64,000 nt of DNA, from the NCBI GenBank assembly GCA_965215605.1, contig OZ244070.1, forward strand, positions 896,001 through 960,000. Direction: 5' to 3'. The notes below the pieces were generated by a model. That model made no database searches and was not told the DNA's origin. It saw nothing but the letters and a program-made list of their open reading frames with translations. Positions 1-14,169 of the stretch are shown in pieces. Positions within the stretch are counted from its first letter, which is position 1. Each line of letters opens with the position of its first letter. The translations under genes and the position numbers were made by a program. This DNA comes from an uncultured Candidatus Binatia bacterium (GTDB lineage Bacteria > Desulfobacterota > Binatia > UBA9968 > JAJDTQ01).

Positions 1-227
1 GCGGCAACCCGGTAAATCTCCCTCTTTGTCATCAGCGCCCAGACGATCTGCGCCATTCGGTTGGCCAGCGGCACTGCGATCAGCATCCTCGGTTTGCACG
101 CCAGCATCCTGGCGAGCCAGGGATCGGTCGTCACCTCACGCCGAACCGCCCGCGGGCGGACGGTCACGGTGCCCGAAATCAACAGCCGTGTGAGGTGGCG
201 CTGGCCCATCTTCGATGTCTTGCCCAT
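1..227 (-). pseudogene. IS110-family transposase, C-terminal remnant (runs off window edge)
   Basis: Manual translation of minus strand: MGKTSKMGQRHLTRLLISG...DPWLARMLACKPRMLIAVPLANRMAQIVWALMTKREIYR, matching the typical IS110 C-terminus (SKMGxRxLRxLL...VALANKMARIxWAxM). The N-terminal DEDD part is missing. Confidence 0.75.
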
Positions 228-349
228 AACCAAGGCAAGTACTTCTGTGGAAGATCCATTTGTCGACGTTTGATGGCGGCCCCAACTGTCGGTTTGCCAG
301 CCACCCGTCCATGCGCGAAAGGGGTACAGAATCAGACATGACATGTTCG

Positions 350-3300
350 TTACTGGATCGTCGCGTCGGGGTCGCCGGCGCTCAAGGCGTTGGTCCAAGC
401 GAGGCCGAGTTCACAGGAGCGGTAGCGGCCCCAGGCCTTCCGCTCCTCGCGCTCAAGAATTGGGAAGGTCGAGTAGATGTAGCGGATATCATCGCGGTCG
501 GTCACACCGTAGAGGTGGAAATAGAGCGCATCCAGTTTGGCGCGGAGATAGAGGCGGCGGTCCTCGTCCCAGCGGAAGGGTGGCCGCACCTCGCCTGTCT
601 CGTCCACATAGCCCATGTCACGGGCGAAGAGAGCCATGTCATGTGCCGTATAGGTGAGCTCCAACACTGCCTCCCGCAGGATCTCCGCTGCTGTTTTCGG
701 TCCGAAGTGCGTAGCTTGGTAGTGCTCCAACGGTACGACTGGGAGTTGCTCGAGAATGAAGAGATTGAGCGTCTGACCCTGAACCTTTTGGCGTGTCACG
801 AAGTCGAAAACCACCGCGTTAAAATTGGCGGCCAGCAGCCATTCGCTCCGATCCGGCATTTCCGGTTCTAGGATAGGAACCTTGTTGCCGAATCCAACTG
901 CCGGAAAGAGCGCAGCTATGAATGTCCTTATGTTGGTCGCTGCGGTGATCTCCTTGAAGCCGAGAACCCAGCCCAACTGAGACGACCACCCGCATTTCGA
1001 CGCCGGCACCCAGTATTGCGGGTCAGGCAGCCAGTGCGGGTCCTTGTGCTGTTCGTTAGAGGCCGCCTCGGGCTGTGCGGGTCGGTGGCGATTCGTGGGT
1101 TTGACGATGACGCTGGCGGCGCGGTGGTCGAACGCCTGCACCATCTTGCCTTCGTAGAGCGGCACCCAATCGCCGCTTGGGCTGGCGTAGCGATTGCTGC
1201 CGATGGGCCATGCGCCTTCGTTTTCTTCAAGTTCAGTCCGCGTACGAAACAGGCCGGAGTCGTTGGTCATATGGAACACGGTCGTATATTTCACCGGCCA
1301 AGTCTTGATGGCCTCGTCCGAAGAGCGGTCTAACAGTATCGGCAAACGGTCGTAGATTGAGGTGGTAAGTTCCGCGGCGCGGCGAGAGCGGAAAATCGGG
1401 GCCGTGCCGGTGTTCGGGTTAAAGCGAGCAAAATCCTCCGCGCTCAACGGGAAGCAGCGATCCGGATCCCCGAGTTCCGACACACTCTGTAGGAAGAAGG
1501 CGCATTTCGCGTCGCCTGAGAGCGGCGAGGGGCTCGCCGAGAAGGTGCAGAATTTGAAGCTTCTGTGGACATCCGGGAAGAATGGCGACGCATCGTGCTG
1601 CGGGCGCCCGTTCTCGAAATCGTAGAGGGCTTTCAACCTGCCTTCGGTCGACACGCCCTTGAAGAACCGCGCTGCGGTCTTGTCCGACGCGATGCCGGAA
1701 GGGATGAGAAGGCCGACCATGCCGTCGCGTGTGACCAGCGTCATCGCGCGCTCGACGAACAGCGAGTAGAGGTTTATGTCGCCTTTGGACAACAGTGGAT
1801 AGTCGCCACCGTTGCGTGCGATGCGGAGCGCGGTGGTAGCTTGGTCATTGGCCCGTGCAAAGTCCTGCGCAAGTGGGTCATCCGCCCTCTCCAGATCAGT
1901 TATCATGCGCTTGCGGTCGGCTGCGCGTGGAGCCATGGCAATTTCCGGGCGGCGCGCGGCGAACCACTCGACCTGCTGCAACTTCATCCGGTCCCAGGGC
2001 GGGTTGCCGATCACGGCGTCGAACCCGCCCGTCAAACCGGGCGTTTCCCAGTCCGACCAGACACCGGGAAACGCCACCTGCCAGTTCAGGAAGCGTTCTT
2101 CGGCGATGAGTCGTTGAGCCTGCTCCAGCATCTCGGCGAAGCGCTCCGCTTCCGGAGCTTCTCTCCGAATTTCGATCTTGCCGAACGCAATATCGATGGG
2201 ATCGCCGAATCTCCCTTCGAGCCAACCGAAAAAGGGACCCTCGTCTTGCGGGCCACGAAGATCCATCCAGTCGAAGGCATGGAGTAGGGACAGAAACGCA
2301 TTCAGCGGTGCCGTCATCTCCGAGACCTCAGCAAACACGTCGGCGGACCGATGTGCCTCCGCAATTTCGGCATCTGTCAAAGCCTCTATGATCTGCATGG
2401 GCGACGCGGACCGTGTAGCTCGGTTCACAGGGCCTTGAAGGAAGAGTGATCCACCTCGGCGCGTCGCCCTTTCGATGGCGCCCAGCACCCAAGCGCCGAA
2501 CAGGCTGTCGCCGCAACGTAAGTGATGGTCCAGGAAGCTGAGCGGAGCTCCGACCGTGAAGGTGTGCAGCCACAGCGACACCTTCGCCAACTCCACAGCC
2601 ATCGGGTTTTTGTCCACGCCGTAGACACAGCGTTTAAGAACCATGCGGCGGACGATGTGTCGGTCGTCGAGTTGTGCAGGATCGAACGTCCAGCCGCGAT
2701 CCTCGGCATTGGCCATGATCGTGCTGCGGATACTGTCGATTCGCTTGTTCAGAGGCGAGATGTAGCCGTCGCACACGGCTTCCGATTCCGCCATCGCAGC
2801 GATGACCCGGTCAGCGAGATAGTCCACGAGGTTTACCAGAAAGTGTCCCGAACCCATCGACGGGTCGCAGACCTTAAGGTCGAGCAGCCTCTCCGCTGGA
2901 TCGAGCTTTTTCAATCGACGCTTCCGGCGGTCTTCGGGCAACTGACTCGATGCGAGTTGGGACGCTTCAGTGGCAAAGGCATCCGTACGTGCCTGTACAA
3001 GGGGTTCGACAGTCTCACCGATAATCAGGCCGACAAGGTCGTCGGGCGTGTAGTAGCTGCCGGAATCCTTCCGCGCGTAGACGTTCGGTCGAACGACGAT
3101 GTCATCGCCGTCGCGAACGATCTCCTGTTCCAGCAACCGCTCATAGATCGAACCCAATTGCTGAACGCCGAGGTCGCGGTAGTTGATATAGCGCCTGCCC
3201 TCCGGCGCTTGCTCGAACGAGAGCGCGTCGATCACGCCGGCCATTACCGCATCTCCCAGCCGGATGCGATCCAGAAGTGGCGTGCGGCGTCGGTCGAACA

Positions 3301-4423
3301 GTCCGCCATTGTAGGGTGGCAGGCCGATTGCAGCGTCACCTTGGTCAATGGCGCGACTCAGATTGTCGATCAATGACCAATATATTGAAGCGTTTTCGGA
3401 GAAGGCATCGCCCGCATCCTTGCGGTGTCCTACGTCGCCGCGAACCCTTTCCCGGAGCGCGTAGTCGTCGTACCGCGAATCGCGAACCGGCAGCAGGTCA
3501 CGGTCTTCAGCATAGAAGATGAACAGCAGGCGGTAGAGTAGAACCAACGCCGCTTCCCGCACCTCGGCCAACGGTACGTCCGGCGCGGCCCGCGCGACCG
3601 CACGGGCAAGATCCGGGAAGACCGTTTCAAAGACTAGTTCGGACAGGCTTGCAGCAACTCGTTCCCGGTAGAAGTGGCCCCTGTCGATAGCCTGCTCATG
3701 GAATGTTCGTTCGTCGACCGCGCCTGGCAGGAATGCTCTACACCGGAATATGAGGGCGAACACCTTGAGCCAATGGCGGCGCTCCTCCCCGTCCAGGGCG
3801 AACAGGCCGTCGTTGTGGCCGGGCAGGTTCAGAACGGCGGCTAGGTCGATTTCAAAAAACTGTTCCGAGACGGATAGGGCGCGCTGCCAATAGAGGCGCC
3901 ATTTTGCCCCGTTGGTTAGAATCCCCCAGCGGAGCCGTCCGGTTGTCAGATCATCGACCCGCCGCAAATAGCGCAGCATTTGCGTGGAGGGTGCTGTCTC
4001 CTCGCCGCGTCGTCCCGACCGCCGGTCGAGGGGACGTAGCCAGCGTTTCGATTCCACGATGGCGAGGCCATGTTGGTACCTTTTCCACTCCTCCGTGAAG
4101 CGGTTGGCCTGTTCCTTTGCTGCATTGTGCGCGAACAACAGTCCGTCGGGTACGGCCTCGCGACCGTGGGCTGAAAGGTTCTGCTGGCGCAAGTTCGCTG
4201 TCCACCCGAGCTGGCCGAAAACGGGCCAGATCAGATCGTCCTCCGTCTGACTCTCATTGGGTAATCGGTCAGCCGGGAAGCGGGCGAATATATCCCGCAA
4301 GGTGGACTCGACGCTGTGGAGCATCAATTCGTCGAAATCCTGCCAAGCGGGAAGATCGACGATGGACTCGCGAAGGAAATCCTCGGCAAAGAGGCTTCCC
4401 TGAAACGGCCTGCCACCGCTCAC
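350..4423 (-). CDS. Fused restriction endonuclease / N6-adenine DNA methyltransferase (type IIG, Eco57I/DrmMI-like)
   Basis: 1357 aa. N-terminal PD-(D/E)xK nuclease motif (VPDGLLF...IVESKR), GSYYTP, MTase motif I (CDPSMGSGHFL), motif IV (IGNPPW), C-terminal TRD-like region. GGAGG upstream of GTG. Confidence 0.88.
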   Translation of the reverse strand: MSGGRPFQGSLFAEDFLRESIVDLPAWQDFDELMLHSVESTLRDIFARFPADRLPNESQTEDDLIWPVFGQLGWTANLRQQNLSAHGREAVPDGLLFAHNAAKEQANRFTEEWKRYQHGLAIVESKRWLRPLDRRSGRRGEETAPSTQMLRYLRRVDDLTTGRLRWGILTNGAKWRLYWQRALSVSEQFFEIDLAAVLNLPGHNDGLFALDGEERRHWLKVFALIFRCRAFLPGAVDERTFHEQAIDRGHFYRERVAASLSELVFETVFPDLARAVARAAPDVPLAEVREAALVLLYRLLFIFYAEDRDLLPVRDSRYDDYALRERVRGDVGHRKDAGDAFSENASIYWSLIDNLSRAIDQGDAAIGLPPYNGGLFDRRRTPLLDRIRLGDAVMAGVIDALSFEQAPEGRRYINYRDLGVQQLGSIYERLLEQEIVRDGDDIVVRPNVYARKDSGSYYTPDDLVGLIIGETVEPLVQARTDAFATEASQLASSQLPEDRRKRRLKKLDPAERLLDLKVCDPSMGSGHFLVNLVDYLADRVIAAMAESEAVCDGYISPLNKRIDSIRSTIMANAEDRGWTFDPAQLDDRHIVRRMVLKRCVYGVDKNPMAVELAKVSLWLHTFTVGAPLSFLDHHLRCGDSLFGAWVLGAIERATRRGGSLFLQGPVNRATRSASPMQIIEALTDAEIAEAHRSADVFAEVSEMTAPLNAFLSLLHAFDWMDLRGPQDEGPFFGWLEGRFGDPIDIAFGKIEIRREAPEAERFAEMLEQAQRLIAEERFLNWQVAFPGVWSDWETPGLTGGFDAVIGNPPWDRMKLQQVEWFAARRPEIAMAPRAADRKRMITDLERADDPLAQDFARANDQATTALRIARNGGDYPLLSKGDINLYSLFVERAMTLVTRDGMVGLLIPSGIASDKTAARFFKGVSTEGRLKALYDFENGRPQHDASPFFPDVHRSFKFCTFSASPSPLSGDAKCAFFLQSVSELGDPDRCFPLSAEDFARFNPNTGTAPIFRSRRAAELTTSIYDRLPILLDRSSDEAIKTWPVKYTTVFHMTNDSGLFRTRTELEENEGAWPIGSNRYASPSGDWVPLYEGKMVQAFDHRAASVIVKPTNRHRPAQPEAASNEQHKDPHWLPDPQYWVPASKCGWSSQLGWVLGFKEITAATNIRTFIAALFPAVGFGNKVPILEPEMPDRSEWLLAANFNAVVFDFVTRQKVQGQTLNLFILEQLPVVPLEHYQATHFGPKTAAEILREAVLELTYTAHDMALFARDMGYVDETGEVRPPFRWDEDRRLYLRAKLDALYFHLYGVTDRDDIRYIYSTFPILEREERKAWGRYRSCELGLAWTNALSAGDPDATIQ

Positions 4424-4535
4424 CGTTCAGCCTCCCAGACCCTTTCGGATACCTTGCGGGCAGTCTCTAGACAGGATCGTTTCATACGAAATACCGGTCG
4501 GTTTCGGCCGAGCGGAGTCCCTGCTCGTTCTCTGG

Positions 4536-4853
4536 TCATGCAATCCCCGGGGCGGCGCTCTTTCCGAAGACACCCGGCCTGGTCGGCAGATGGCGGATCT
4601 GGGCGCCCGTTTCCCTGTCCGCCTGAACCAGATCGTACTGTGCCTGAAGGTTAAGCCAGAACTGAGGCTCGACACCGAACCAGTGGCCCAAGCGTAGCGC
4701 GGTGTCGCCGGTGACCGAACGCTTGCCGGCGATGATCTGGCTCACCCGGTTGGCGGGCACCTCGATCTGCCGCGCCAACTCCGTCGGTGTGACACCCAGT
4801 TCTTCCAACTCGCCCTTCAGGACCTCACCGGGATGGACAGCTCTCATGAACAT
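4536..4853 (-). CDS. higA: HigA-family antitoxin (HTH)
   Basis: VHPGEVLKGEL...LARQIEVPANRVSQIIAGKRSVTGDTALRLGHWFG..PQFWLNLQAQYDL signature. ATG at 4853 with AGGAGG RBS. Confidence 0.9.
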   Translation of the reverse strand: MFMRAVHPGEVLKGELEELGVTPTELARQIEVPANRVSQIIAGKRSVTGDTALRLGHWFGVEPQFWLNLQAQYDLVQADRETGAQIRHLPTRPGVFGKSAAPGIA

Positions 4854-4869
4854 ACCGTCCTCCTCCTTC

Positions 4870-5157
4870 TCATCCGTGGTAGTCGACGATCTCAACATTG
4901 TCCGGTCCTGCATGCCCGTCCGGCCACTCAAAACACAGTCTCCATTGCCGATTAATGCGAATGGAGTACTGGCCTTTCCTGTCACCCCGGAGGGCCTCGA
5001 GGTGGTTTCCCGGCAAGGACCGCAGGGTATCGAGCGAAGGCGCGGCGTTCAGAACGGCGAGCCGTCTTGCTGCTTGGTCTTCGAAGCTCCGGAACGCCCT
5101 GACTGCCCGCCCTTCGGCAAACGCTCGTGCCTTTCTGTCTCGATAGCCGAGGATCAT
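4870..5157 (-). CDS. higB: HigB (RelE/ParE-superfamily) mRNA interferase toxin
   Basis: PGNHLEALRGDRKGQYSIRINRQWRLCFEW...VEIVDYH signature. Lies directly upstream of higA. Confidence 0.92.
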   Translation of the reverse strand: MILGYRDRKARAFAEGRAVRAFRSFEDQAARRLAVLNAAPSLDTLRSLPGNHLEALRGDRKGQYSIRINRQWRLCFEWPDGHAGPDNVEIVDYHG

Positions 5158-5161
5158 CTCC

Positions 5162-5194
5162 TGTCAAGATGACAAGCTAGACGATGTACGTCAA
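5162..5194 (-). promoter_or_regulatory. Putative higBA promoter with overlapping palindrome
   Basis: Minus strand TTGACG-17 nt-CATCTT. Inverted repeat TGTCA-AGA-TGACA (5162-5174) covers the -10. Confidence 0.5.
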
Positions 5195-5216
5195 GAGTAC
5201 ACTACCTATCGCCAGC

Positions 5217-6098
5217 CTATCTGCGGCGACTTTTTGACGGCCACGGAAGTGTGCCGTCAAGTTCCTTGAGCAAAGATTCATTGTCTTCGTCCTCGTCCCA
5301 ACGCTCGCAGGTTGGCTTCCTGCTCTCGTCAAACCAGATGAGTGATAGACATTGATTCCATTCCTGCAGCACGATGGCTTCTTCTGAGACCAGCTGCCGG
5401 TTCTGGAATCCCTCGCCGAACCATACATCCGTTGAGATCTCGTCGTGGTCCTCGATCTTCGCACCACCGCGCATCAGGCGATGGGCGACGCTGCCTTCCG
5501 GCACAGGGATGTTGAATTCAATCCAGCCCTTCAACTCACGCAGGTATTTCGACCGGGACACATAGCGGATCCACCCGTCCTCGCTTAGAACAAACGCGCA
5601 GGGCTCGATTGTATTCGCGGCGAATCGAGAACCCGTTGTGGTCAATGACGCTTTGTACTCCGCCGCCAAGGACTTGACCGCATCCAGGGAAATGTTCGTG
5701 TCGGCGACTTCCTTGGCGAAGGAATCGTAGGGGAGCAAACACTCGGCGGCGAATACATCGCAAAGGATCTCTTCCTCGGGTCGCTGTCGATAGCGCAGAA
5801 GCACGTCGGTCTTTAACGTCGTGCCGTGATGCTGCGATGGCAGTCCCATCACGATGTGGGCGATCTCGTGGAGGACGGTGAAGCGCTGCCGCTCCTCCCG
5901 GTGATTGCCGTTGACGATGATGAGGTGTTTGCCCTTCAACCGGGCCGTCTGGCCGGATTCGTCCTCCGCTAGATTGTAGACGATCTTGATCTTCGCGTCT
6001 GCGGCGGTGGCTAGATGCTTGATGTCGACGGGGACCGCTTCGTTACCGGCAACCCCGATGAACTGGCGAGCCTTGAGAATCGTTTGGAACTCGTCCAT
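5217..6098 (-). CDS. capP: ImmA/IrrE-family Zn metallopeptidase, CapP-like
   Basis: 293 aa. RQRFTVLHEIAH (HExxH) and EEEILCDVFAAECLLP motifs. Adjacent to an HTH gene and divergent from CBASS. Confidence 0.8.
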   Translation of the reverse strand: MDEFQTILKARQFIGVAGNEAVPVDIKHLATAADAKIKIVYNLAEDESGQTARLKGKHLIIVNGNHREERQRFTVLHEIAHIVMGLPSQHHGTTLKTDVLLRYRQRPEEEILCDVFAAECLLPYDSFAKEVADTNISLDAVKSLAAEYKASLTTTGSRFAANTIEPCAFVLSEDGWIRYVSRSKYLRELKGWIEFNIPVPEGSVAHRLMRGGAKIEDHDEISTDVWFGEGFQNRQLVSEEAIVLQEWNQCLSLIWFDESRKPTCERWDEDEDNESLLKELDGTLPWPSKSRRR

Positions 6099-6482
6099 TC
6101 AGTCCTCGTCTTCATCGAAAAAGGTGGCCAAGCGGTCCACGTGTTGGCGCCACTCGTCGGCGGTTTCTGGGCGCTTTCCCCTGAAACTCATTTGATGAGC
6201 AGGCTCAAGCAAGTCGAGCGGCCGATCCTCGTCTTCGACGAACACTTCGATGAGGGTGCGGTTGACATCCTTTCCGACCAGCCGGCGCAAGAGTTGCGCC
6301 GTCCGCGGACTCAGCTTCAAGGTACGGACGAACGCGTCGACCACCTGCTCGGAGGGTGCCGTCTTCTCCTCCCTTTCAAGCCGGTGAATGTACGCGTGGT
6401 CGATGCCGCACAGCTTGCCGAACTCCCGTAGGCTCAGGTTGCGGGCTTCCCGGAATTTTTTCAGCGTGTAGCCGAACGACAT
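6099..6482 (-). CDS. capH: XRE-family HTH transcriptional regulator, CapH-like
   Basis: MSFGYTLKKFREARNLSLREFGKLCGIDHAYIHRLEREEKTAPS HTH. C-terminal MSFRG motif. Stop abuts the peptidase start. Confidence 0.78.
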   Translation of the reverse strand: MSFGYTLKKFREARNLSLREFGKLCGIDHAYIHRLEREEKTAPSEQVVDAFVRTLKLSPRTAQLLRRLVGKDVNRTLIEVFVEDEDRPLDLLEPAHQMSFRGKRPETADEWRQHVDRLATFFDEDED

Positions 6483-6492
6483 CGCTCCACCC

Positions 6493-6535
6493 TTGACACA
6501 CAGGTTTACTCTGGTATGTTGTCCATATAGACAAC
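6493..6535 (+). promoter_or_regulatory. Putative CBASS operon promoter and palindromic operator
   Basis: TTGACA (6493-6498), 16-nt spacer, TGn-TATGTT (6515-6520). Inverted repeat GTTGTC-CATATA-GACAAC (6518-6535) overlaps the -10/+1. Confidence 0.55.
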
Positions 6536-6690
6536 GAAGTAGATAAAACCTAGAATCTAACCTAGTTTTTGGCACCGTAGAATGCTGGGCCCCGTCGTCT
6601 GCACGGACTACAGGATAGCCAATTGTGGCATTCGTGACAAGGACTGGCCAACGGAACGCGGGTGTCGATAGCGAAGGCCCCTGATCTGAC

Positions 6691-7686
6691 ATGACGACCA
6701 CAGAACTACAGCCGCCCCAACGCCGCGTCCTGTCCATCGACGGGGGCGGGATATTGGGGACGTTTCCTGCCGCTTTCCTCGCGGGGCTCGAACAGCACCT
6801 GCCGAAGCCGATAGGCAGCTATTTCGATCTGATCGCGGGGACGTCTACCGGCGGCATCATCGCGATAGGGCTCGCGATGGGGCTCCGCGCGTCCGAACTG
6901 CTAGATCTCTACGAGCAGCGCGGCCTGGAGATCTTCGGCCAGGGCCGCGGACCGTTTGCCGATTTCATCCTCGGCAAGCTGCGCCTCGGGCGGTGGCTGA
7001 TCATGAACAAATACGACGCCAAGCCCCTCCAAACCGTTCTCGAAGAAGTCCTCGGCGATCGGCGAATCGGTGATGCCAAGACGCGCCTCCTCGTTCCCGC
7101 CTGGAACCCTGTGGCGCGCTCCGTCTACATCTACAAGACCGCGCACCACCCGCGCCTTCGCAACGACTACAAGTGCCTGGCGGTCGACGCCGCTATGGCC
7201 ACGGCTGCCGCACCCACCTACTTCCGCCAACACGTGACGGAGGATGCGGCCGGCCTGACCGATGGCGGCACTTGGGCGAATAACCCTACGACACTGGCAG
7301 TCGTCGAAGCGATTGCGGTGCTGGGCTGGCCGCGCGACTCGCTGCACGTTCTCAGCCTTGGCTGCCTCGACGAGACCTACAGCGTTCGCAAGTGGGCAGG
7401 TATAGGCACGTTGGGTTCCAAGATCATCAAGCTCTTCATGGACGGTCAGTCCCACGGCGCGATGGGCGTCGCGAAACTGCTTACCGGCCACGAGCATGAG
7501 CGGGAGGCAATCCACCGGATCAACCACACCGTTCCGTTGAATGCCTTCAAAATGGACGACGCCCGCGTCATCCAGGATCTCAAGGGGCTTGGCCACTCTT
7601 TCGCGCGTGATCGCCACCCGGTCCTTGAAACCGTTTTCTTTAACGCTCCGGCGGATACCTTCTTCCCGATTTATCCGCTCGAGTAG
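6691..7686 (+). CDS. capV: CBASS patatin-like phospholipase effector (CapV-like)
   Basis: DGGGILG, GTSTG (catalytic Ser), AAPTYF, DGG (catalytic Asp). Immediately upstream of a CD-NTase. Confidence 0.88.
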   Translation: MTTTELQPPQRRVLSIDGGGILGTFPAAFLAGLEQHLPKPIGSYFDLIAGTSTGGIIAIGLAMGLRASELLDLYEQRGLEIFGQGRGPFADFILGKLRLGRWLIMNKYDAKPLQTVLEEVLGDRRIGDAKTRLLVPAWNPVARSVYIYKTAHHPRLRNDYKCLAVDAAMATAAAPTYFRQHVTEDAAGLTDGGTWANNPTTLAVVEAIAVLGWPRDSLHVLSLGCLDETYSVRKWAGIGTLGSKIIKLFMDGQSHGAMGVAKLLTGHEHEREAIHRINHTVPLNAFKMDDARVIQDLKGLGHSFARDRHPVLETVFFNAPADTFFPIYPLE

Positions 7687-7717
7687 TCGGTTCTTGAAAG
7701 CAGAGGAGGTTAAAGCC

Positions 7718-8920
7718 ATGTCCGTTGATTTCAGCAAATTTAACGAGTTCCTCGAGCTCGTCGGCAGCGAGATCGACATACCGCCGAGCAAGTATCAGGA
7801 CGCTGTTAACCGCTACCACGCGGTGGGGCACTGGCTTGAGGATGGCGACTACGTCGGATGCCAGGGCCAACTGGTCATCTCCCCCCAAGGGTCGTTCCAG
7901 CTTGGGACAGTCGTCAGGCCCATCCGCCACGGCATCGAGGCAAGCTACGACATCGATCTGGTGTGTGAGATGCCGCTTCGCAAGGACTTGACTACTCCGC
8001 GAGCGGTCAAGCAGATCGTGGGCGACCGGCTCCGGCAACACGAAACCTACCGCCGGCTTCTCGATCCCGAAGGCCGACGCTGCTGGACCCTCGAATATGC
8101 CGAACAGGACGGAGTGGGGTTCCATCTCGACGTCTTGCCCGCTGTTCCTGACAACAACGGGCTCCAGAGTACAGCCATTGCAATCACGCACAAAAACGAC
8201 GCCGTGTACTCGTGGTCGGCGAGCGACCCGCGCGGGTACGGGACGTGGTTCGACGGCAAGAACGCTGCAGCATTTGCGCGTGTCGTCGTCGAACAGAAGC
8301 GGTTCATCCAGCGCCAGGCATTCCTCATCTATGCGCGCGTCGACGACGTCCCGGATCAACTGGTCCGGACGCCGCTGCAGCGCTCGGTCCAACTCATGAA
8401 GCGGAATCGCGACCTGCACTTCAATGATCCCGGGAAGATTGACCACGCCCCTATCTCGGTCATCATCACGACCCTTGCCGCGCACCTTTACCAAGGCGAA
8501 CCGGACACGTACTCTGCTTTAGCCGGTATTGTTGGCAGACTCCAGGGACATGCGGGGCTCGTGGAGGGCGGGACAATTGACCCGTCTCTGGCGACGATGG
8601 GCCTCATCCGGCGGCTCCGGGACGGCACGTGGTATATTGGCAACCCGGTCAATCCGGCCGAGAACTTCGCCGACCGATGGCATGAGGACGGTCACGCACG
8701 CGCACGGGCGTTCTTCTCTTGGGTGACCGGTCTGCAAAAGGACCTGCTGAATCTTCAGACCGACACCAACCCACGTCTGCTCAAGGAGAATCTGACCGGG
8801 GTGTTGGGGACCGCGGCGGTAGCCAAGCATTTTGGCGTTCTCGTTCCATCAGCCGATGCCGTGGAGCCGCGCCCGCGAATCCATATCAACAGGCCCGCGA
8901 AGCCGTGGCGACGCGGGTGA
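7718..8920 (+). CDS. cGAS/DncV-like nucleotidyltransferase (CD-NTase)
   Basis: QGSFQLGTVVRP...YDIDLVC, FHLDVLP, RTPLQRSVQLMKRNRD, NPVNPAENFADRW. Ends KPWRRG. ATG at 7718 after GAGGAGG. Confidence 0.9.
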   Translation: MSVDFSKFNEFLELVGSEIDIPPSKYQDAVNRYHAVGHWLEDGDYVGCQGQLVISPQGSFQLGTVVRPIRHGIEASYDIDLVCEMPLRKDLTTPRAVKQIVGDRLRQHETYRRLLDPEGRRCWTLEYAEQDGVGFHLDVLPAVPDNNGLQSTAIAITHKNDAVYSWSASDPRGYGTWFDGKNAAAFARVVVEQKRFIQRQAFLIYARVDDVPDQLVRTPLQRSVQLMKRNRDLHFNDPGKIDHAPISVIITTLAAHLYQGEPDTYSALAGIVGRLQGHAGLVEGGTIDPSLATMGLIRRLRDGTWYIGNPVNPAENFADRWHEDGHARARAFFSWVTGLQKDLLNLQTDTNPRLLKENLTGVLGTAAVAKHFGVLVPSADAVEPRPRIHINRPAKPWRRG

Positions 8921-9648
8921 CAGAGGACTTGCGGAAGCAAATCGCCGAGCTAAGTGGCGTTCACAAGAGACTGACGGACGTCGTCGAGCACGACGCCGAA
9001 ATCCTCTTGTCCGGCACGTTGGATTTCGAGGCGTCCGCCGATGGGCTGGAAACCATCACGGCGTCGTTCGCCGTTGAACTGAGCATCCCGCACGTGTTCC
9101 CTGACCGATTACCGTGGGCGAAGGAGATCGGTGGCCGGATTGGGACCGATTACGAACATCTCAATTCAGATGGCACGCTGTGCCTCGCTGTCCCGGTTGA
9201 GCAGCGACGCGTGTTTTTTGAGCAGCCCACTCTGCTCGGATTTGTAGACCGGCTACTAGTCCCCTATCTGTATGGGTACTGTTTCTGGAGGAAGCACGGT
9301 TATCACCCGTTCGACGAAGCGGCGCACGGAAATGAGGGGATCCTGCGCTACTATGTCGATACCCTCGGCTTGCGAGATCCCCTCAAGGTGCTGGCCTTCA
9401 TCTGTTTCCTCTTCGAGCATGGATACCGCGGGCACCACGACTGTCCCTGTGGGAGCGGTCGCAAAGTTCGGGCGTGCCACGGACCAGTGTTGCACGCTCT
9501 CCACAAGCATCATACGCGGGAGACGGTCCGCGGCGATTTCTTGGCAATCCTTGGTATCTGTTTCGCCCGATTCGAAAAAGGCCAGCTCTCCTTTTCGGGT
9601 CCACTGCGAAATCAACTGATCCGGCTACTGAAAAGGTTTAAGGACTGA
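8917..9648 (+). CDS. Prokaryotic E2 (ubiquitin-conjugating-like) protein with C-terminal SEC-C motif
   Basis: FPDRLP and HLNSDGTLCL (E2-type HxN...GxLC, Cys at 9181-9183). CPCGSGRKVRACH SEC-C motif. GTGA start/stop overlap with the CD-NTase. Confidence 0.8.
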   Translation: MTEDLRKQIAELSGVHKRLTDVVEHDAEILLSGTLDFEASADGLETITASFAVELSIPHVFPDRLPWAKEIGGRIGTDYEHLNSDGTLCLAVPVEQRRVFFEQPTLLGFVDRLLVPYLYGYCFWRKHGYHPFDEAAHGNEGILRYYVDTLGLRDPLKVLAFICFLFEHGYRGHHDCPCGSGRKVRACHGPVLHALHKHHTRETVRGDFLAILGICFARFEKGQLSFSGPLRNQLIRLLKRFKD

Positions 9649-10870
9649 AGGTCGCTTCCCTGGCCGGGGCTTGGTCCTCGTCGCCAATCGGGTATCCTTT
9701 CAGGATGTCGGCGGCGATGCTGTCGGACACGCGGGTGGCGGACTCGCGCACCGACTCCCGCGCCAGATGCGCGTACCGCGCGGTGGTCTCCACCTTGGTG
9801 TGACCCAGGAGCTTCCCGATCATGGTCAGCCCTTCGCCGAGCGCCAGCGCCCTGGACGCGAACGAGTGGCGGCAGTCGTGGAGCCGCACGTCCTCCAACT
9901 CCGCGCGCTTGCGGATCCGGTCCCAGGGGTCGTTCAGGTTGCGCAGGTGCGTGCCCGCCTTCTTCCCGGGGATCACGTGCGGGTTCCCCTCCACGCGCGG
10001 GATGCCGGCGAGCACCCGGGCCGCCTCCGGCGAGAGCGGCGCCACGCGCGCTCCGGTCTTGGAGTCCTCGAGCTTGATCTCGCGCGCATCGAGGTTCACG
10101 TCCCGCCAGCGGAGCGCCAGGACCTCGTTCCGCCTCAACCCCGTGAGCAGCAGCAGCCGGATCGCCGCCACCGCGTGCACCGACATTCCATTCCCGTTCT
10201 CCGCCTCCGCCAGCGCCCGGCCCAGCCGGCGGAACTCCTCCTCGCTCAGGAACCGCTCGCGCCCGCGCTCGCGGTTCTTCACCACCACCCGGCACGGGTT
10301 GCTCGCCTCCGGCAACTCCCCCCGGTCCTCCGCCGAGCTCCAGATGCGCGACAGCGCCTCCACAGTCCGGTTCGCCATCGACGGCGTCCCGCGCATCGAG
10401 TGGTGCAGTTCGGTTACCCGCTTGTGATCCACCGCCAGCGCCGGGACTCTGCCGAGTGCTGGCAGCAGGTGCTTGCGGACGATCAGCGTGTACATCTCCA
10501 CCGTCCTTGGCTTGCACCGCACGGCCACGTGCTCCTCGAGCCACCGGCGCGCAAGCTCCCCCACCGTGGGACCCTCGACCAGCGCCGCAGCGGGTTCCGC
10601 CAGCGGCTCCTCTCCCGCCTTGATGCGCGCGATGATCAGCGCCGCCCGCCTGCGCGCCTCCTCCGCCGTCACGATCCCGTGCCGGCCCACCGTCACCCGC
10701 TTCGCCGCCTTGCCGTTGGCCCGGGTCTGCACCACGTAGTACTTGCTCCCCGACGGATAGGCGCGAACCCCGAAGCCCGAAAGCTCCGAGTCCCAATAGA
10801 CCGTGTCCCTCTCCACTGCCAGCGCTTCCACCGTGCGCTTCGAAATCGTCGCCGTGGTGAGCTTCGCCAT
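9638..10870 (-). CDS. Tyrosine recombinase/integrase with N-terminal arm-DNA-binding domain
   Basis: YWDSELSGFGVR arm domain. Catalytic TGLRRNE, KTG, HDCRH, LLGH, TARY all present. Confidence 0.93.
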   Translation of the reverse strand: MAKLTTATISKRTVEALAVERDTVYWDSELSGFGVRAYPSGSKYYVVQTRANGKAAKRVTVGRHGIVTAEEARRRAALIIARIKAGEEPLAEPAAALVEGPTVGELARRWLEEHVAVRCKPRTVEMYTLIVRKHLLPALGRVPALAVDHKRVTELHHSMRGTPSMANRTVEALSRIWSSAEDRGELPEASNPCRVVVKNRERGRERFLSEEEFRRLGRALAEAENGNGMSVHAVAAIRLLLLTGLRRNEVLALRWRDVNLDAREIKLEDSKTGARVAPLSPEAARVLAGIPRVEGNPHVIPGKKAGTHLRNLNDPWDRIRKRAELEDVRLHDCRHSFASRALALGEGLTMIGKLLGHTKVETTARYAHLARESVRESATRVSDSIAADILKGYPIGDEDQAPAREATFSP

Positions 10871-10891
10871 TCGAGGATGCCTCCCTCCGGC

Positions 10892-12073
10892 TCAGACCGC
10901 GCCCGGCGGCAGGACGTCCGCCGCGATGCTGCCCCCGACCCGGGCGGCCGAAGCCTTCTCCGTGTCCCGCGCCAGATGCGCATAGCGCGCCGTGGTCGCC
11001 ACCTTCGCGTGACCCAGCAGCGCGCCGATCATCGAAAGCCCCTCGCCCAGCGCCAGCGCCCGCGAGGCGTACGAATGACGGCAGTCGTGTAGCCGCACGT
11101 CGCCGAGCCCCGCCCGCCTGCGGAGCCTCATCCAGACGGCATCGAGGTTCGTGAGACGAGTTCCGGGCTTCCGCCCCGCGATCACCCACGGATTGTCCTT
11201 CGTCCGCGGTATCCCCGCGAGCACCGCCTCCACCGCCGGCGTGAGCGGCACGCTGCGCCATCCCGTCTTGCCGTCCCTCAGCCGAAGCTCCCCCGCCGTG
11301 TGGTCCACGTCGTCCCACCTGAGCGTCAGGATCTCGTTCCGGCGGCAGCCCGTGAGCAGCAGCAGACGGAGCGCGGGGATCGCCGGAGGGAACACCGTGC
11401 CGTCGGCTTCCGCCTCGTCGAGCACCCGCCCCAACTCGCGGTACTCCTCGGGCGTCAGGAACCGCTCGCGGCGCGTCTCCCTGTAGCGGCGCACAGACCG
11501 GCACGGATTGCGCCGCGGCGGCGTCATCCCCCAGGCCTCCGCCAGTCGGAACATGTGCGCCAGGACCCCCACCGCCGCGTTCGCCTGGTAGGGCTTCCCC
11601 CGGAGCTTGTGATGGAACTCCGAGACTTGCGGGCGATCCACCTTCGAGAGCTGCAGATGGCCCAGCTCCGGCACGATGTACAGGCGCAGGATACGCCCAA
11701 AGGCCTCCACCGTCGCGGGCCGGCAGTTCACCCGCACATGGGCCTCTATGTAGCGCTCGGCGAGATCCGCCACCGTGGGCCCGGGCGCCGCGGGCGGAGG
11801 GGCGGGCTCCAGCCCCTGCTTGATGCGGTCGATGGCGAGCGCCGCCTTGCGGCGGGCGTCCTCGGGTGTCAGCCTGCCGTAGCGGCCGAGCGCGAAGCGC
11901 TTCGGCCCCCCGGCCGGTCCCCGGGTCTGCACGCACCAGACCTTGCGGCCCGAGGCATACACCCGAATGCCGAACCCCGGCAGGTCTCGGTCCCAGACCA
12001 CGGTGTCGCCGGACTCGACGGAGAGCGCATCGACGGTGCGCTTGGTAAGCTTGATGGGTTGGCGCGTGGGCAT
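10892..12073 (-). CDS. Tyrosine recombinase/integrase, paralog of the adjacent integrase
   Basis: VWDRDLPGFGIR, TGCRRNE, KTG, HDCRH, LLGH, TARY. ATG at 12073 with GGAGG RBS. Confidence 0.92.
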   Translation of the reverse strand: MPTRQPIKLTKRTVDALSVESGDTVVWDRDLPGFGIRVYASGRKVWCVQTRGPAGGPKRFALGRYGRLTPEDARRKAALAIDRIKQGLEPAPPPAAPGPTVADLAERYIEAHVRVNCRPATVEAFGRILRLYIVPELGHLQLSKVDRPQVSEFHHKLRGKPYQANAAVGVLAHMFRLAEAWGMTPPRRNPCRSVRRYRETRRERFLTPEEYRELGRVLDEAEADGTVFPPAIPALRLLLLTGCRRNEILTLRWDDVDHTAGELRLRDGKTGWRSVPLTPAVEAVLAGIPRTKDNPWVIAGRKPGTRLTNLDAVWMRLRRRAGLGDVRLHDCRHSYASRALALGEGLSMIGALLGHAKVATTARYAHLARDTEKASAARVGGSIAADVLPPGAV

Positions 12074-12325
12074 GGGGCGATTTCCTCCGACCTCGGAATC
12101 GGAGAAAATGCTATCAGGACCGTAATCGAAACGCAACCCAGTGAAATCGTATCCTGGTGTTTTCGAGGTCAACGGCTGGCGCCGGTTGACGGAATAGCGC
12201 AGGGAGGCGAGCCTTTCGGGATCGTCAGTAAGCTATTGTAATACAGACGATTATTGCAGTCCTGTCGTGTCAGGACTTGACATGACAGCGCTTGTCCGCT
12301 ACCCGAGAAACATTGAGAAAACCGG

Positions 12326-12463
12326 TGATATATATGGGTCTTTTTTGCCGTCGGCTGCGTTGCTCTTCCTCGCGTGGTAACCGCCACTGCTCGTCATCGC
12401 GCCTTGCCGACAACAAAAAATCCTCCGCATCTCATCATGCGAACTAACCGGACAGGACACTAG
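12326..12463. repeat. Palindromic MITE-like element, truncated on island side
   Basis: Inner inverted repeat TTTTTTGCCGTCGGC (12341-12355) / GCCGACAACAAAAAA (12406-12420). Outer arm GAACTAACCGGACAGGACACTAG ends in CTAG. Arm recurs at 41471 and 54544. Confidence 0.65.
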
Positions 12464-13203
12464 CGCGAGGGGAACACGACGGCGCGCTGCGGCTCGCCCA
12501 GCAGGCGGATGAATCCCCCGAAGGCCGTCTCGCTCAGTTGTTGGAGCCGCGGGATGTTCACCGGCGTTTCCCGCCGGATGCGTTCCGCGGTGATGCGTGG
12601 TCGAAGGTTCCTGAGCTCGGCCTTGTGCACCGGCACGTTGAGCCAGCGCTCGATCAACGGAACGTCCACCTCCAGGTGGAACTGGAAGCCGTAGACGCGG
12701 TCGCCGAAGCGGAAGGCCTGATTCCGGCAGTCGGGCGAGGTCGCCAGCAGGACCGCCTTCCTCGGCAGGTGGAACGTGTCCGCGTGCCACTGGAAGAGTG
12801 TTTCGGTTTCCCTGAAACCGGCGAACAGCGGGTCCCGCCTGCCCTCCTCCGTGATCGAAACGCCGTACCAGCCGATCTCGGGAACCTTGTTGGGTTTCAC
12901 CCTGGCCCCGAGCGCCTTGGCGACGAGCTGCGCGCCGAGACAGATTCCCAGCACCGGAAGATCCTTGTCGAGGGCCCTCCGGATCAGCGACACCTCCGTG
13001 GCCAAATGCCCGTGCTCGACCTCGTAGGCGCTCATGGGACCGCCGAGCATCACCAAGCCGCTGTAGCCGTCGAGCCCGGGGCTGGCGTCGGGATGACGTC
13101 CGAAGTTCACGTAGCGCATCCGGAAGCCCGCTTCCCGGAGCATCGGGTTCAGCGTTCCCAGTATCTCGAACGGTACGTGCTGGCAGACGAGCAGCTTCTT
13201 CAT
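12460..13203 (-). CDS. Class I glutamine amidotransferase (GMP synthase-like domain)
   Basis: LGGPMS, PVLGICLGAQL (Cys nucleophile), FQFHLE (His-Glu). Confidence 0.9.
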   Translation of the reverse strand: MKKLLVCQHVPFEILGTLNPMLREAGFRMRYVNFGRHPDASPGLDGYSGLVMLGGPMSAYEVEHGHLATEVSLIRRALDKDLPVLGICLGAQLVAKALGARVKPNKVPEIGWYGVSITEEGRRDPLFAGFRETETLFQWHADTFHLPRKAVLLATSPDCRNQAFRFGDRVYGFQFHLEVDVPLIERWLNVPVHKAELRNLRPRITAERIRRETPVNIPRLQQLSETAFGGFIRLLGEPQRAVVFPSR

Positions 13204-13299
13204 GGATGAAGGACGGGCTCCCGCGGGACTTCAACGAGAAACTAACAGAAATCCCCACGGACGGCGACGGAGGTCCGGCCGTCCGGGCGATCCGCCGTG

Positions 13300-14169
13300 C
13301 TACCAGTGCCGCCCGAGGGTCACGAAGATGGCACCCGACACCACCAGCAGCGTGCCGAAGACCACCGCCGGGGTCGTGTTCTCGATGCGGCGCAGAATGA
13401 TGCTGGCCATCAGCACGGTCCATACCGGCGACGTGGCGGTGATGGGAGAGACGACCACGGTCGGCCCCGACGCCAGGGCGAAGAACAGCAGCAGGATCGC
13501 CATGGTCTCGCCGACACCGGAGATGGCGAAAGGGAGCAACGCCTTCCGGTGCCACACGATGGGATCCCGAGGCAGCGGCAGCGACAGGTAGGTCATGAAG
13601 CAGCCCAGCGAGACGATCCCTACCAGCGCCGCGAAGAACAGCGGCTCGTCGGCCAGGAGCATGGCGTATCGACGGATAGGGTGCACGGTGGAGGTCATCA
13701 CGGAGGTCGCCACCGGCAGCACTAGGTACCAGCGACGAAAGTCGGGGATCTGCTCGTCCATTCTCCACGAGGTGAGAGCGGTGCCGCCCACGATCAGCAG
13801 CACCCCCGCCAGATTGAGGGCATTGGTCTGCTCTCCCAGCACGGTGACGCCGATCAGCACGGTGAGCATGGGGTGCGTATTGCGCAGGGTGACGGCCCGG
13901 GATACACCCACCTTGGAGATGGCCAGATAGTGGCACGACCGCAGCACCGTCTGCAGCACGCCGGTGATGACCACCAGATAGAGCGCCGTGCGGGGAACCG
14001 AGGGGGCCCCCTCGGTGAAGAGGACCACGGACGACAGCCCCACCGCGTGCACGGTCAGCGAGAACAGCACGGCGGTGTTGGGGGTCGAGTACCGCAGTCC
14101 CCACCGAGCCGCGATGTTCGACGTGGCGTAGGAGAACGCGGTAAGGAGGGCGAGCAGTTCGAAGGACAT
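13300..14169 (-). CDS. DMT/EamA family transporter
   Basis: About 10 hydrophobic helices in two repeats, with LGE and SPVWTVL motifs. Start trimmed to MSFELL. Confidence 0.85.
   Translation of the reverse strand: MSFELLALLTAFSYATSNIAARWGLRYSTPNTAVLFSLTVHAVGLSSVVLFTEGAPSVPRTALYLVVITGVLQTVLRSCHYLAISKVGVSRAVTLRNTHPMLTVLIGVTVLGEQTNALNLAGVLLIVGGTALTSWRMDEQIPDFRRWYLVLPVATSVMTSTVHPIRRYAMLLADEPLFFAALVGIVSLGCFMTYLSLPLPRDPIVWHRKALLPFAISGVGETMAILLLFFALASGPTVVVSPITATSPVWTVLMASIILRRIENTTPAVVFGTLLVVSGAIFVTLGRHW

Follow-up and report, generated by a model that had tools for sequence, protein, structure and literature searches.

Can one stress-responsive switch command several defence systems whose genes stand head to tail on the same strand? 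The question is raised by a stretch of 64,000 nt from an uncultured Candidatus Binatia bacterium (hereafter the window; OZ244070.1, positions 896,001-960,000, contig C1 of the analysed 4.06-Mb genome G000). There, a restriction-modification (RM) gene, a higBA toxin-antitoxin (TA) pair, the repressor/peptidase pair CapH/CapP and an operon for cyclic-oligonucleotide-based antiphage signalling (CBASS) are stacked beside two integrases. A sequence-only reading of this DNA had placed capH, capP, higB, higA and RM in that order on the minus strand, separated by gaps of 0, 59, 16 and 112 bp, with the CBASS operon running divergently from CapH/CapP. Open reading frame (ORF) listing, domain scans and inspection of the sequence confirmed this gene map and its gaps, as well as the description of a stacked defence island adjoining two integrases. 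The parts of the locus belong to well-known kinds. That reading had gone on to propose a single CapH/CapP switch driving RM, higBA and CBASS alike, and this proposal finds no support in what follows. With a probability of about 78%, the region is the integrase-proximal low-GC cargo block (about -3400 to 9648 in window coordinates, negative positions lying to its left) of an integrative conjugative element (ICE), a mosaic of self-contained modules joined end to end, and the adjacency of capP and higB arose recently by lineage-specific juxtaposition and does not reflect a conserved regulatory design.

Module boundaries in related genomes

A DNA search of 31 related genomes, which like all genomes searched here are a sample, splits the region into three units, at 5214-9654, 270-5204 and 9649-12473. 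The congener G011 matches only 5214-9654 (82%), which holds capP, capH, capV, the cyclase gene and the E2 gene, and there the unit adjoins type I RM genes. Conversely, G007 matches only 270-5204 (88%), comprising RM, higA, higB and 47 bp upstream of higB, next to DUF5131/PDC-M30-type genes and without capHP. G031 also carries higBA with RM, and G015 a truncated copy. The break between the capHP+CBASS unit and the RM+higBA unit lies within the 59-bp capP-higB gap, at 5204/5214. A second search covered all 28 genomes of the family. There, matches from the higBA side end at 5201-5213, one match from the capP side begins at 5214, and the capP-higB junction occurs in 0/27 genomes other than the source. 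The capHP+CBASS cassette itself ends 3 nt past the capP stop codon.

The same picture holds at greater distance. We collected 31 loci with CapP relatives (31-78% identity) and searched each by tblastn with the proteins of the window. The complete five-gene cassette, with capV-cdn-E2 divergent from capH-capP, is present in 13 of them at 48-85% protein identity, in Binatia, Alpha- and Gammaproteobacteria, Nitrospira and Phycisphaeraceae. CapP loci without this CBASS have E1-like or E1-E2-JAB operons at the divergent position, which fits the published link between CapH/CapP and ubiquitin-like operons (10.1101/2022.04.27.489752). The sequence-only reading had itself named the synteny of related islands as a check, and its outcome speaks against the proposed regulon: a HigB, HigA or RM homologue directly follows capP in none of the 31 loci. 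The closest case is L007, where higBA (58%/48%) stands 3 kb downstream of capP, past a transposase fragment, and is followed by an Mrr-type fragment. According to Pfam, the 146 ORFs found 3' of capP in 29 loci are unrelated and include convergent genes, transposases, integrases, other defence genes and housekeeping genes. Hence, on gene order, a capH-to-RM regulon fails, given the counts of 0/31 and 0/27 and the occurrence of the modules apart from each other.

Two observations concern the surroundings of capP in relatives. In five loci, a co-oriented unannotated ORF starts soon after the capP stop (L009:10892-11362, L012:10931-11743, L018:10965-11393, L025:10985-11500 and L028:10937-14914, the last of 1325 aa), so that the position downstream of capP may sometimes carry cargo of its own. 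In addition, a Rhodobacterales metagenome-assembled genome (L024:10001-11475) holds a truncated capP (residues 104-287, 77%) followed by an integrase fragment (62% to the integrase Int2 of the window), with an EamA gene 2.4 kb further on. It might represent a degraded relative of this type of island.

The higBA-RM cassette and its upstream block

HigB (4870..5157, minus strand; 95 aa) is a RelE-like toxin (PF05015, 6.4e-15) and HigA (4536..4853, minus strand; 105 aa, start read from the sequence) an Xre-type antitoxin with a helix-turn-helix (HTH) domain (TIGR02607, 1.6e-27, 95.1 bits vs a cutoff of 47.7; HTH_3). The toxin gene lies 5' of the antitoxin gene with a gap of 16 bp, which is the layout of a HigBA type II TA module. 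Between higB and the module break, the segment 5158..5204 (minus strand) has the appearance of a promoter/operator region: TGTAC-N7-GTACA surrounds a TTGACG -35-like hexamer, and TGTCA-TCT-TGACA stands beside the start codon. About 43 bp upstream of the higB ATG are common to 8 complete higBA copies that have unrelated DNA beyond, and their homology to the window ends about 45 bp before the ATG whatever stands further upstream. This conserved block, ending at the same place in every context, suggests that higBA is a module that brings its own promoter and operator. We therefore take 5158..5204 to be a candidate higBA promoter/operator region that travels with the genes. The second module is a higB-higA-RM cassette (270-5204) with its own putative control region of about 43 bp, presumably autoregulated by HigA. 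Transcription of RM probably starts either there or at an unrecognised site within the 112-bp gap.

As in other HigBA modules, the RelE-like toxin gene precedes the Xre-HTH antitoxin gene and inverted repeats surround a promoter-like region; unlike them, the lineage studied here has several copies in the genus, and in some cases a type IIG-like RM gene follows it. An inverted repeat at the higB start, CTTGTC-N5-GACAGG, resembles the candidate CapH operator; it was considered as a CapH site and rejected, because its spacing is wrong and it is kept in higBA copies without a nearby capH.

A second intact higBA copy (94% nucleotide identity), solitary in being without RM, lies elsewhere in the source genome, at C1:3081068-3081867 (L043:10068-10867), between ordinary metabolic genes. 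Still attached to it are 16 nt from the 3' end of capP and an internal piece of capP, 100 nt long, at 99% identity, so that the capP and higBA pieces at this site differ in identity (99% vs 94%).

The RM gene (350..4423, minus strand; GTG start preceded by a GGGAGG ribosome-binding site) encodes a single large polypeptide of 1357 aa, a fusion built on a gamma-class N6-adenine methyltransferase domain of Eco57I/MmeI type (Eco57I domain, 2.4e-21). Its neighbours in Atlas clusters, at 0.97-0.99, all carry Eco57I. Two PADLOC profiles match it partially, that for type IIG enzymes (REase_MTase_IIG, 2.7e-63) and DrmMI (1.5e-84); as to a fused endonuclease domain, residues 1-250 have no Pfam family match, and the protein has no sequence match in the PDB. 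RM is a probable type IIG restriction-modification enzyme. Membership of a DISARM or BREX system was rejected, since the DrmMI and PglX profiles match the methylase core alone and no DISARM or BREX partner genes are present.

The linkage of higBA to RM raises the possibility that higBA is a dedicated partner of RM. It might keep the 5-kb cassette in place by addiction, or HigA might act as a controller (C)-like protein that times RM expression from the higB promoter. The block higB-higA-RM is indeed kept at 85-93% identity in G007, G031 and, truncated, G015; the 112-bp gap shows no separate promoter call, and some solitary higBA copies keep part of this gap, to 4418-4487. However, all the linked copies belong to one closely related lineage within one genus. 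Ten nucleotide-level higBA copies outside the window were examined, and 7/10 are solitary, RM being next to higBA only in the three genomes just named. Among distant RM homologues (44-72% identity, 26 loci in other genera), none has a HigB or HigA homologue in the examined flank (0/26). Pfam assignments of the ORFs upstream of RM in 19 of these 26 loci give instead a RecG-like helicase gene in 10, HTH_37 in one and AbiEii in one. Dedication of higBA to RM thus appears rather unlikely.

RM homologues (60-70%) from a different family of this class stand directly 3' of a RecG-like helicase gene (L078-L084, L095, L097 and L098), and several of these loci have a small ORF of about 90-100 aa, without a Pfam match, between the two genes.

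The putative CapH control region and the reach of the capH promoter

The first module is a 4.4-kb cassette, 5214-9654, combining CapH/CapP with CBASS. CapP (5217..6098, minus strand) is an IrrE/M78-type zinc peptidase (PADLOC capP, 6.2e-53; Peptidase_M78) with the HExxH zinc-binding motif as HEIAH, in the peptide HEIAHIVM, and it matches the solved CapP structure (PDB 7t5t, 2.9e-13). CapH (6099..6482, minus strand; 127 aa) is an HTH repressor (PADLOC capH, 2.3e-10; HTH_31) too diverged for a sequence match to any solved CapH chain. The capH stop and capP start codons abut (TGAATG), giving an adjacent pair of repressor and M78 peptidase genes. The C-terminal region of CapH contains a Phe-Arg motif where CapP would be expected to cut: MSFRGxRP, with F101-R102, is invariant in 27/27 aligned CapH homologues. 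In related systems, CapH is reported to bind the CBASS promoter, CapP activated by single-stranded DNA (ssDNA) to cut CapH (10.1101/2022.04.27.489752; 10.64898/2026.05.16.725639), and the E. coli protein to be cut at Phe82-Arg83 (10.1101/2022.04.27.489752).

The 208 bp between capH and the divergent capV (6483..6690) form a putative control region shared with the immune operon, in a layout found in all 13 related full-cassette loci. Four blocks are conserved across 12 aligned capH-capV intergenic regions from several phyla (the window, L004, L009, L011-L018 and L025). The operator-like palindrome O1 (6518-6535), GTTGTC-N6-GACAAC, is perfect in the window and reads GTTGTC-N6/7-GACAAC across the alignment. 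O2 (6594-6611) is a degenerate copy of it with 2 mismatches. A CBASS-direction promoter-like site (6493-6520, plus strand) consists of an invariant TGTCAAG just before the capH start, which corresponds to a TTGACA -35 hexamer on the other strand, followed 16-17 nt later by a TAnnGT -10 element abutting O1. Facing it, near capV, a capH-direction promoter-like site (6640-6612, minus strand) reads TTGTCA-N17-TAWnnT and has O2 directly 3' of it. O1, O2, both -35 hexamers and the TA of the -10 elements are invariant or nearly so. With the two sites facing each other, the predicted 5' leaders of the CBASS and capH transcripts overlap in antisense by ~80 nt with a CapH-type palindrome at each start, a layout that is kept across phyla.

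O1 is the sole perfect operator match in the genome, where matches with one mismatch are near the control level (13 vs 8). When up to 2 mismatches are allowed in the window, the only matches near these genes are O1 and O2, and none lies upstream of higB or RM. Hence, on operators as on gene order, the capH-to-RM regulon fails, since the pattern occurs only at 6518 and 6594 and higBA has its own upstream block. CapH likely represses both the CBASS promoter and its own. Control of the capH-capP arm by CapH is probable, as a conserved promoter reading toward capH is followed by the degenerate operator copy. In such a scheme, CapH would hold down the divergent CBASS operon through O1, which abuts the CBASS -10, and probably also the capH-capP operon through O2 at the predicted start of the capH transcript. 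Upon DNA damage, activated CapP would cut CapH at the conserved F-R bond and so free both promoters.

The CBASS operon is present and divergent as had been described; its type needs correction, as this is an E2-only ('type II short') system in the order capV-cdn-E2. CapV (6691..7686, plus strand) is a patatin-like phospholipase effector (NCBIfam CBASS_lipase, 3e-70, 237 bits vs a cutoff of 200; PADLOC effector, 4.8e-96). The 400-aa CdnG-like cyclase of the CD-NTase (cGAS/DncV-like nucleotidyltransferase) family (7718..8920, plus strand; ATG at 7718 after GAGGAGG; PADLOC cyclase, 3.3e-110) completes the pairing of a CD-NTase with a cyclic-nucleotide-activated effector that these profiles identify. 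The Cap2-like protein of 243 aa (8917..9648, plus strand) starts at a GTG overlapping the cyclase stop and comprises only an E2 domain (PADLOC E2, 1.7e-74, a 241-position profile matched by residues 68-307 of the long ORF). This E2 stands alone, with no E1 domain and no JAB (Cap3), and its gene ends at 9648, where the integrase module begins.

In sequence, the cyclase is closest to PDB 9woo, a 'cyclic GMP-AMP synthase' (4.8e-48), among solved proteins, then to Serratia marcescens SmCdnG (PDB 8hsb, 1.3e-28). We take the Serratia system to be an example of type II-short (E2-only) CBASS with a CdnG cyclase; here as there, a CdnG-like cyclase is followed by a stand-alone E2 without E1 or JAB, and the difference lies in 9woo being the best relative of the present cyclase. 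On the side of regulation, the best comparison is the E. coli MS115-1 system (10.1101/2022.04.27.489752). Both have an HTH repressor and an IrrE-like zinc peptidase divergent from CBASS, a shared promoter region with a conserved DNA element, and a Phe-Arg bond in the C-terminal part of CapH. Unlike the E. coli operon, which is a type III HORMA/NucC system, that of the window is E2-only with a patatin effector. Moreover, the E. coli element is described as 22 bp located upstream of the -35, whereas the candidate operator here overlaps the CBASS -10/start and has a second, degenerate copy after the capH-direction promoter-like site.

DdrO/IrrE of Deinococcus and ImmR/ImmA of ICEBs1 likewise use a peptidase-cleaved HTH repressor as a DNA-damage switch, and IrrE matches CapP weakly (PDB 3dte, 1.6e-4). 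Unlike the present pair, they control DNA-repair genes or element excision and not an immune operon.

Several points weigh against strictly separate modules. All five minus-strand genes point the same way and stand close together, a consensus scan predicts no intrinsic terminator on their strand between 200 and 12400, and neither the capP-higB nor the higA-RM junction RNA forms a hairpin with a U-tract behind it, so that transcription from the capH promoter could continue into higBA and RM. The consensus scan calls no sigma-70-like promoter in the 59-bp or the 112-bp gap, so that the putative higB promoter rests on conservation. The capP-higB junction occurs twice in the source genome, and because the capP-3'-end/higBA junction recurs there, it must be older than a single local event. 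Finally, tblastn with this HigBA misses unrelated TA families, and in some loci Pfam does identify further TA and RM genes close to capP, for the most part in the opposite orientation. A hairpin at the capP 3' end (5231-5260) was rejected as a terminator: its pairing is not kept across 22 sequences including the window, that pairing results from the Asp-Gly and Pro-Ser codons, and no U-tract comes after it; one compensatory change was seen in L007.

These points could be accommodated by a strain-restricted regulon newly made by juxtaposition, in which damage derepresses the capH promoter and read-through into higB-higA-RM co-induces these genes with CBASS. The conserved capH-direction promoter-like site with O2 makes the arm plausibly damage-inducible, and the co-orientation, the lack of a predicted terminator and the second occurrence of the junction all point the same way. 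Set against this are the absence of the junction from the 27 other family genomes and the 31 CapP-related loci, and the conserved upstream element that higBA keeps everywhere, with higBA (with or without RM) persisting where capHP is missing. Where the junction occurs again in this genome, higBA is intact but capP has been destroyed. A HigA-bound operator at the higB start could also act as a roadblock, and Rho-dependent termination lies outside what the prediction used here covers. Such a regulon is unlikely. Its stronger form, in which the chance abutment of two mobile cassettes created a damage-inducible regulon where DNA damage or phage would jointly raise CBASS, a restriction enzyme and a toxin pair with a ribosome-dependent mRNase, is more doubtful still.

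Equally doubtful is a functional rather than transcriptional coupling, in which independently expressed modules cooperate because RM-made breaks or ssDNA activate CapP and CBASS serves as a second line behind restriction: such cooperation is proposed in general by Lau et al. (10.1101/2022.04.27.489752), and both the RM enzyme and the CapHP-CBASS cassette are present and apparently intact, but it needs no adjacency, the adjacency is not conserved, and any RM system in the cell would do, the genome having at least one more, an XhoI-type pair.

The integrase end module and the conjugative element

The modular reading accounts for the low-GC block as cargo of a larger element. The block runs from about -3400 to 9650 with a GC content of 54-62% vs 65.9% for the contig, so that the island reaches further than had been described, beyond the left edge of the window. 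G+C at third codon positions (GC3) is 0.65-0.78 in the cargo genes and about 0.9 in the integrases and flanking genes. The tandem integrases are at the edge of the island as the sequence-only reading had stated, but they constitute a separate repeated module with host-like GC3.

This end module of 2.8 kb (9649..12465, minus strand) is composed of Int2 (9638..10870, minus strand), Int1 (10892..12172, minus strand) and a non-coding end of about 290 bp finishing in ...ACACTAG. Each integrase has Arm-DNA-bind_3, SAM_3 and a catalytic domain; the two are paralogous P4-type tyrosine integrases with 66-67% nucleotide identity. Five further copies were aligned at 87-92% identity, the source genome contributing one, G007 two, and G015 and G001 one each (L044:10265-13113, L054:14148-16939, L055:14454-17277, L056:6632-9470 and L057:14615-17455), and more were listed. 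Beyond ACACTAG the flanks vary from copy to copy and are without tRNA; in the window, the CTA of this end also serves the GATase gene as its stop codon. Toward the cargo, homology stops at the Int2 stop codon and the neighbours vary as well. The window has CBASS there; the second copy of the source genome has IS3 with an Eco57I-like methylase and an XhoI-type endonuclease; G007 has SspBCD with helicase, HATPase and patatin genes; and G001 and the second copy of G007 have ICE backbone genes. What had been described as tandem integrases is thus the conserved end module of a family of elements, just inside which defence cargo gathers.

Within the non-coding end, 12338..12420 resembles a repetitive extragenic palindromic (REP) or miniature inverted-repeat transposable element (MITE), with terminal inverted repeats of ~15 bp, TTTTTTGCCGTCGGC ... 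GCCGACAACAAAAAA. It has no Rfam match, in keeping with the absence of any Rfam family from window positions 1-13000, and every genome of the genus that was searched has many copies of 12336-12400 (89-100% identity).

At the other end, the RM-higBA module is bordered by the C-terminal remnant of an IS110-family transposase (1..398, minus strand, in an ORF from -9 to 398; NCBIfam transpos_IS110, 7.8e-07, profile positions 273-342 of 343), which overlaps the end of the RM gene. Window positions 1-226 recur at 81-93% in other genomes of the genus. Further left, still within the low-GC block, a 430-aa gene without Pfam, NCBIfam or PADLOC match is followed by an Xre/ParS-RES toxin-antitoxin pair (L003:16970-19204, window -3030 to -796); together they make up the third module.

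Left of the island lies an ICE backbone with genes for a ParB-like protein, PAPS reductase, RadC, a Strawberry-notch-like helicase, SSB, TrwC relaxase, TraG_N and AbiE, which has 82-89% identity to an element in the congener G001. Three consecutive tyrosine-recombinase genes (L062:13403-16582, window -36597 to -33418), resembling a recombinase-trio insertion, split the backbone that is contiguous in G001, and an additional integrase is found close by at L062:18538-19659. To the right of the integrases follow ordinary chromosomal genes (GATase, EamA, TctAB, MFS and TopA). Neither the window nor the 20 kb left of it contains a tRNA gene. As to attachment repeats, -9000..600 and 9400..13400 share no direct or inverted repeat of more than 16 bp. 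The far end of the ICE was not found, the right-end sequence having no copy in the 60 kb leftward.

Defence islands sit in variable regions of integrative conjugative elements and genomic islands. The present locus follows this pattern, with low-GC cargo at the integrase end of a backbone and, at the corresponding position of other copies, Ssp phosphorothioation genes or an XhoI-type RM pair. It departs from it in an end module that has two paralogous P4-type integrases, occurs several times per genome and does not lie beside a tRNA gene.

Adjacency and co-orientation within a defence island are weak evidence of co-regulation, as this case illustrates: module breakpoints can be placed here to about 10 bp, and relatives carry each of the modules on its own. 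If read-through from the capH promoter did occur, new multi-system regulons could arise by plain juxtaposition, as a regulatory capture within an ICE cargo hotspot. For the widespread CapHP-CBASS cassette, the analysis provides a testable operator/promoter map, with two candidate operators, facing promoter-like sites and an invariant motif at the putative CapH cleavage position. It also brings to light a higBA(-RM) cassette that is mobile, and an end module with two integrases, present in multiple copies, which gathers varied defence cargo. Overall, the locus chiefly serves as a clear instance of assembly from modules within the cargo hotspot of an ICE.

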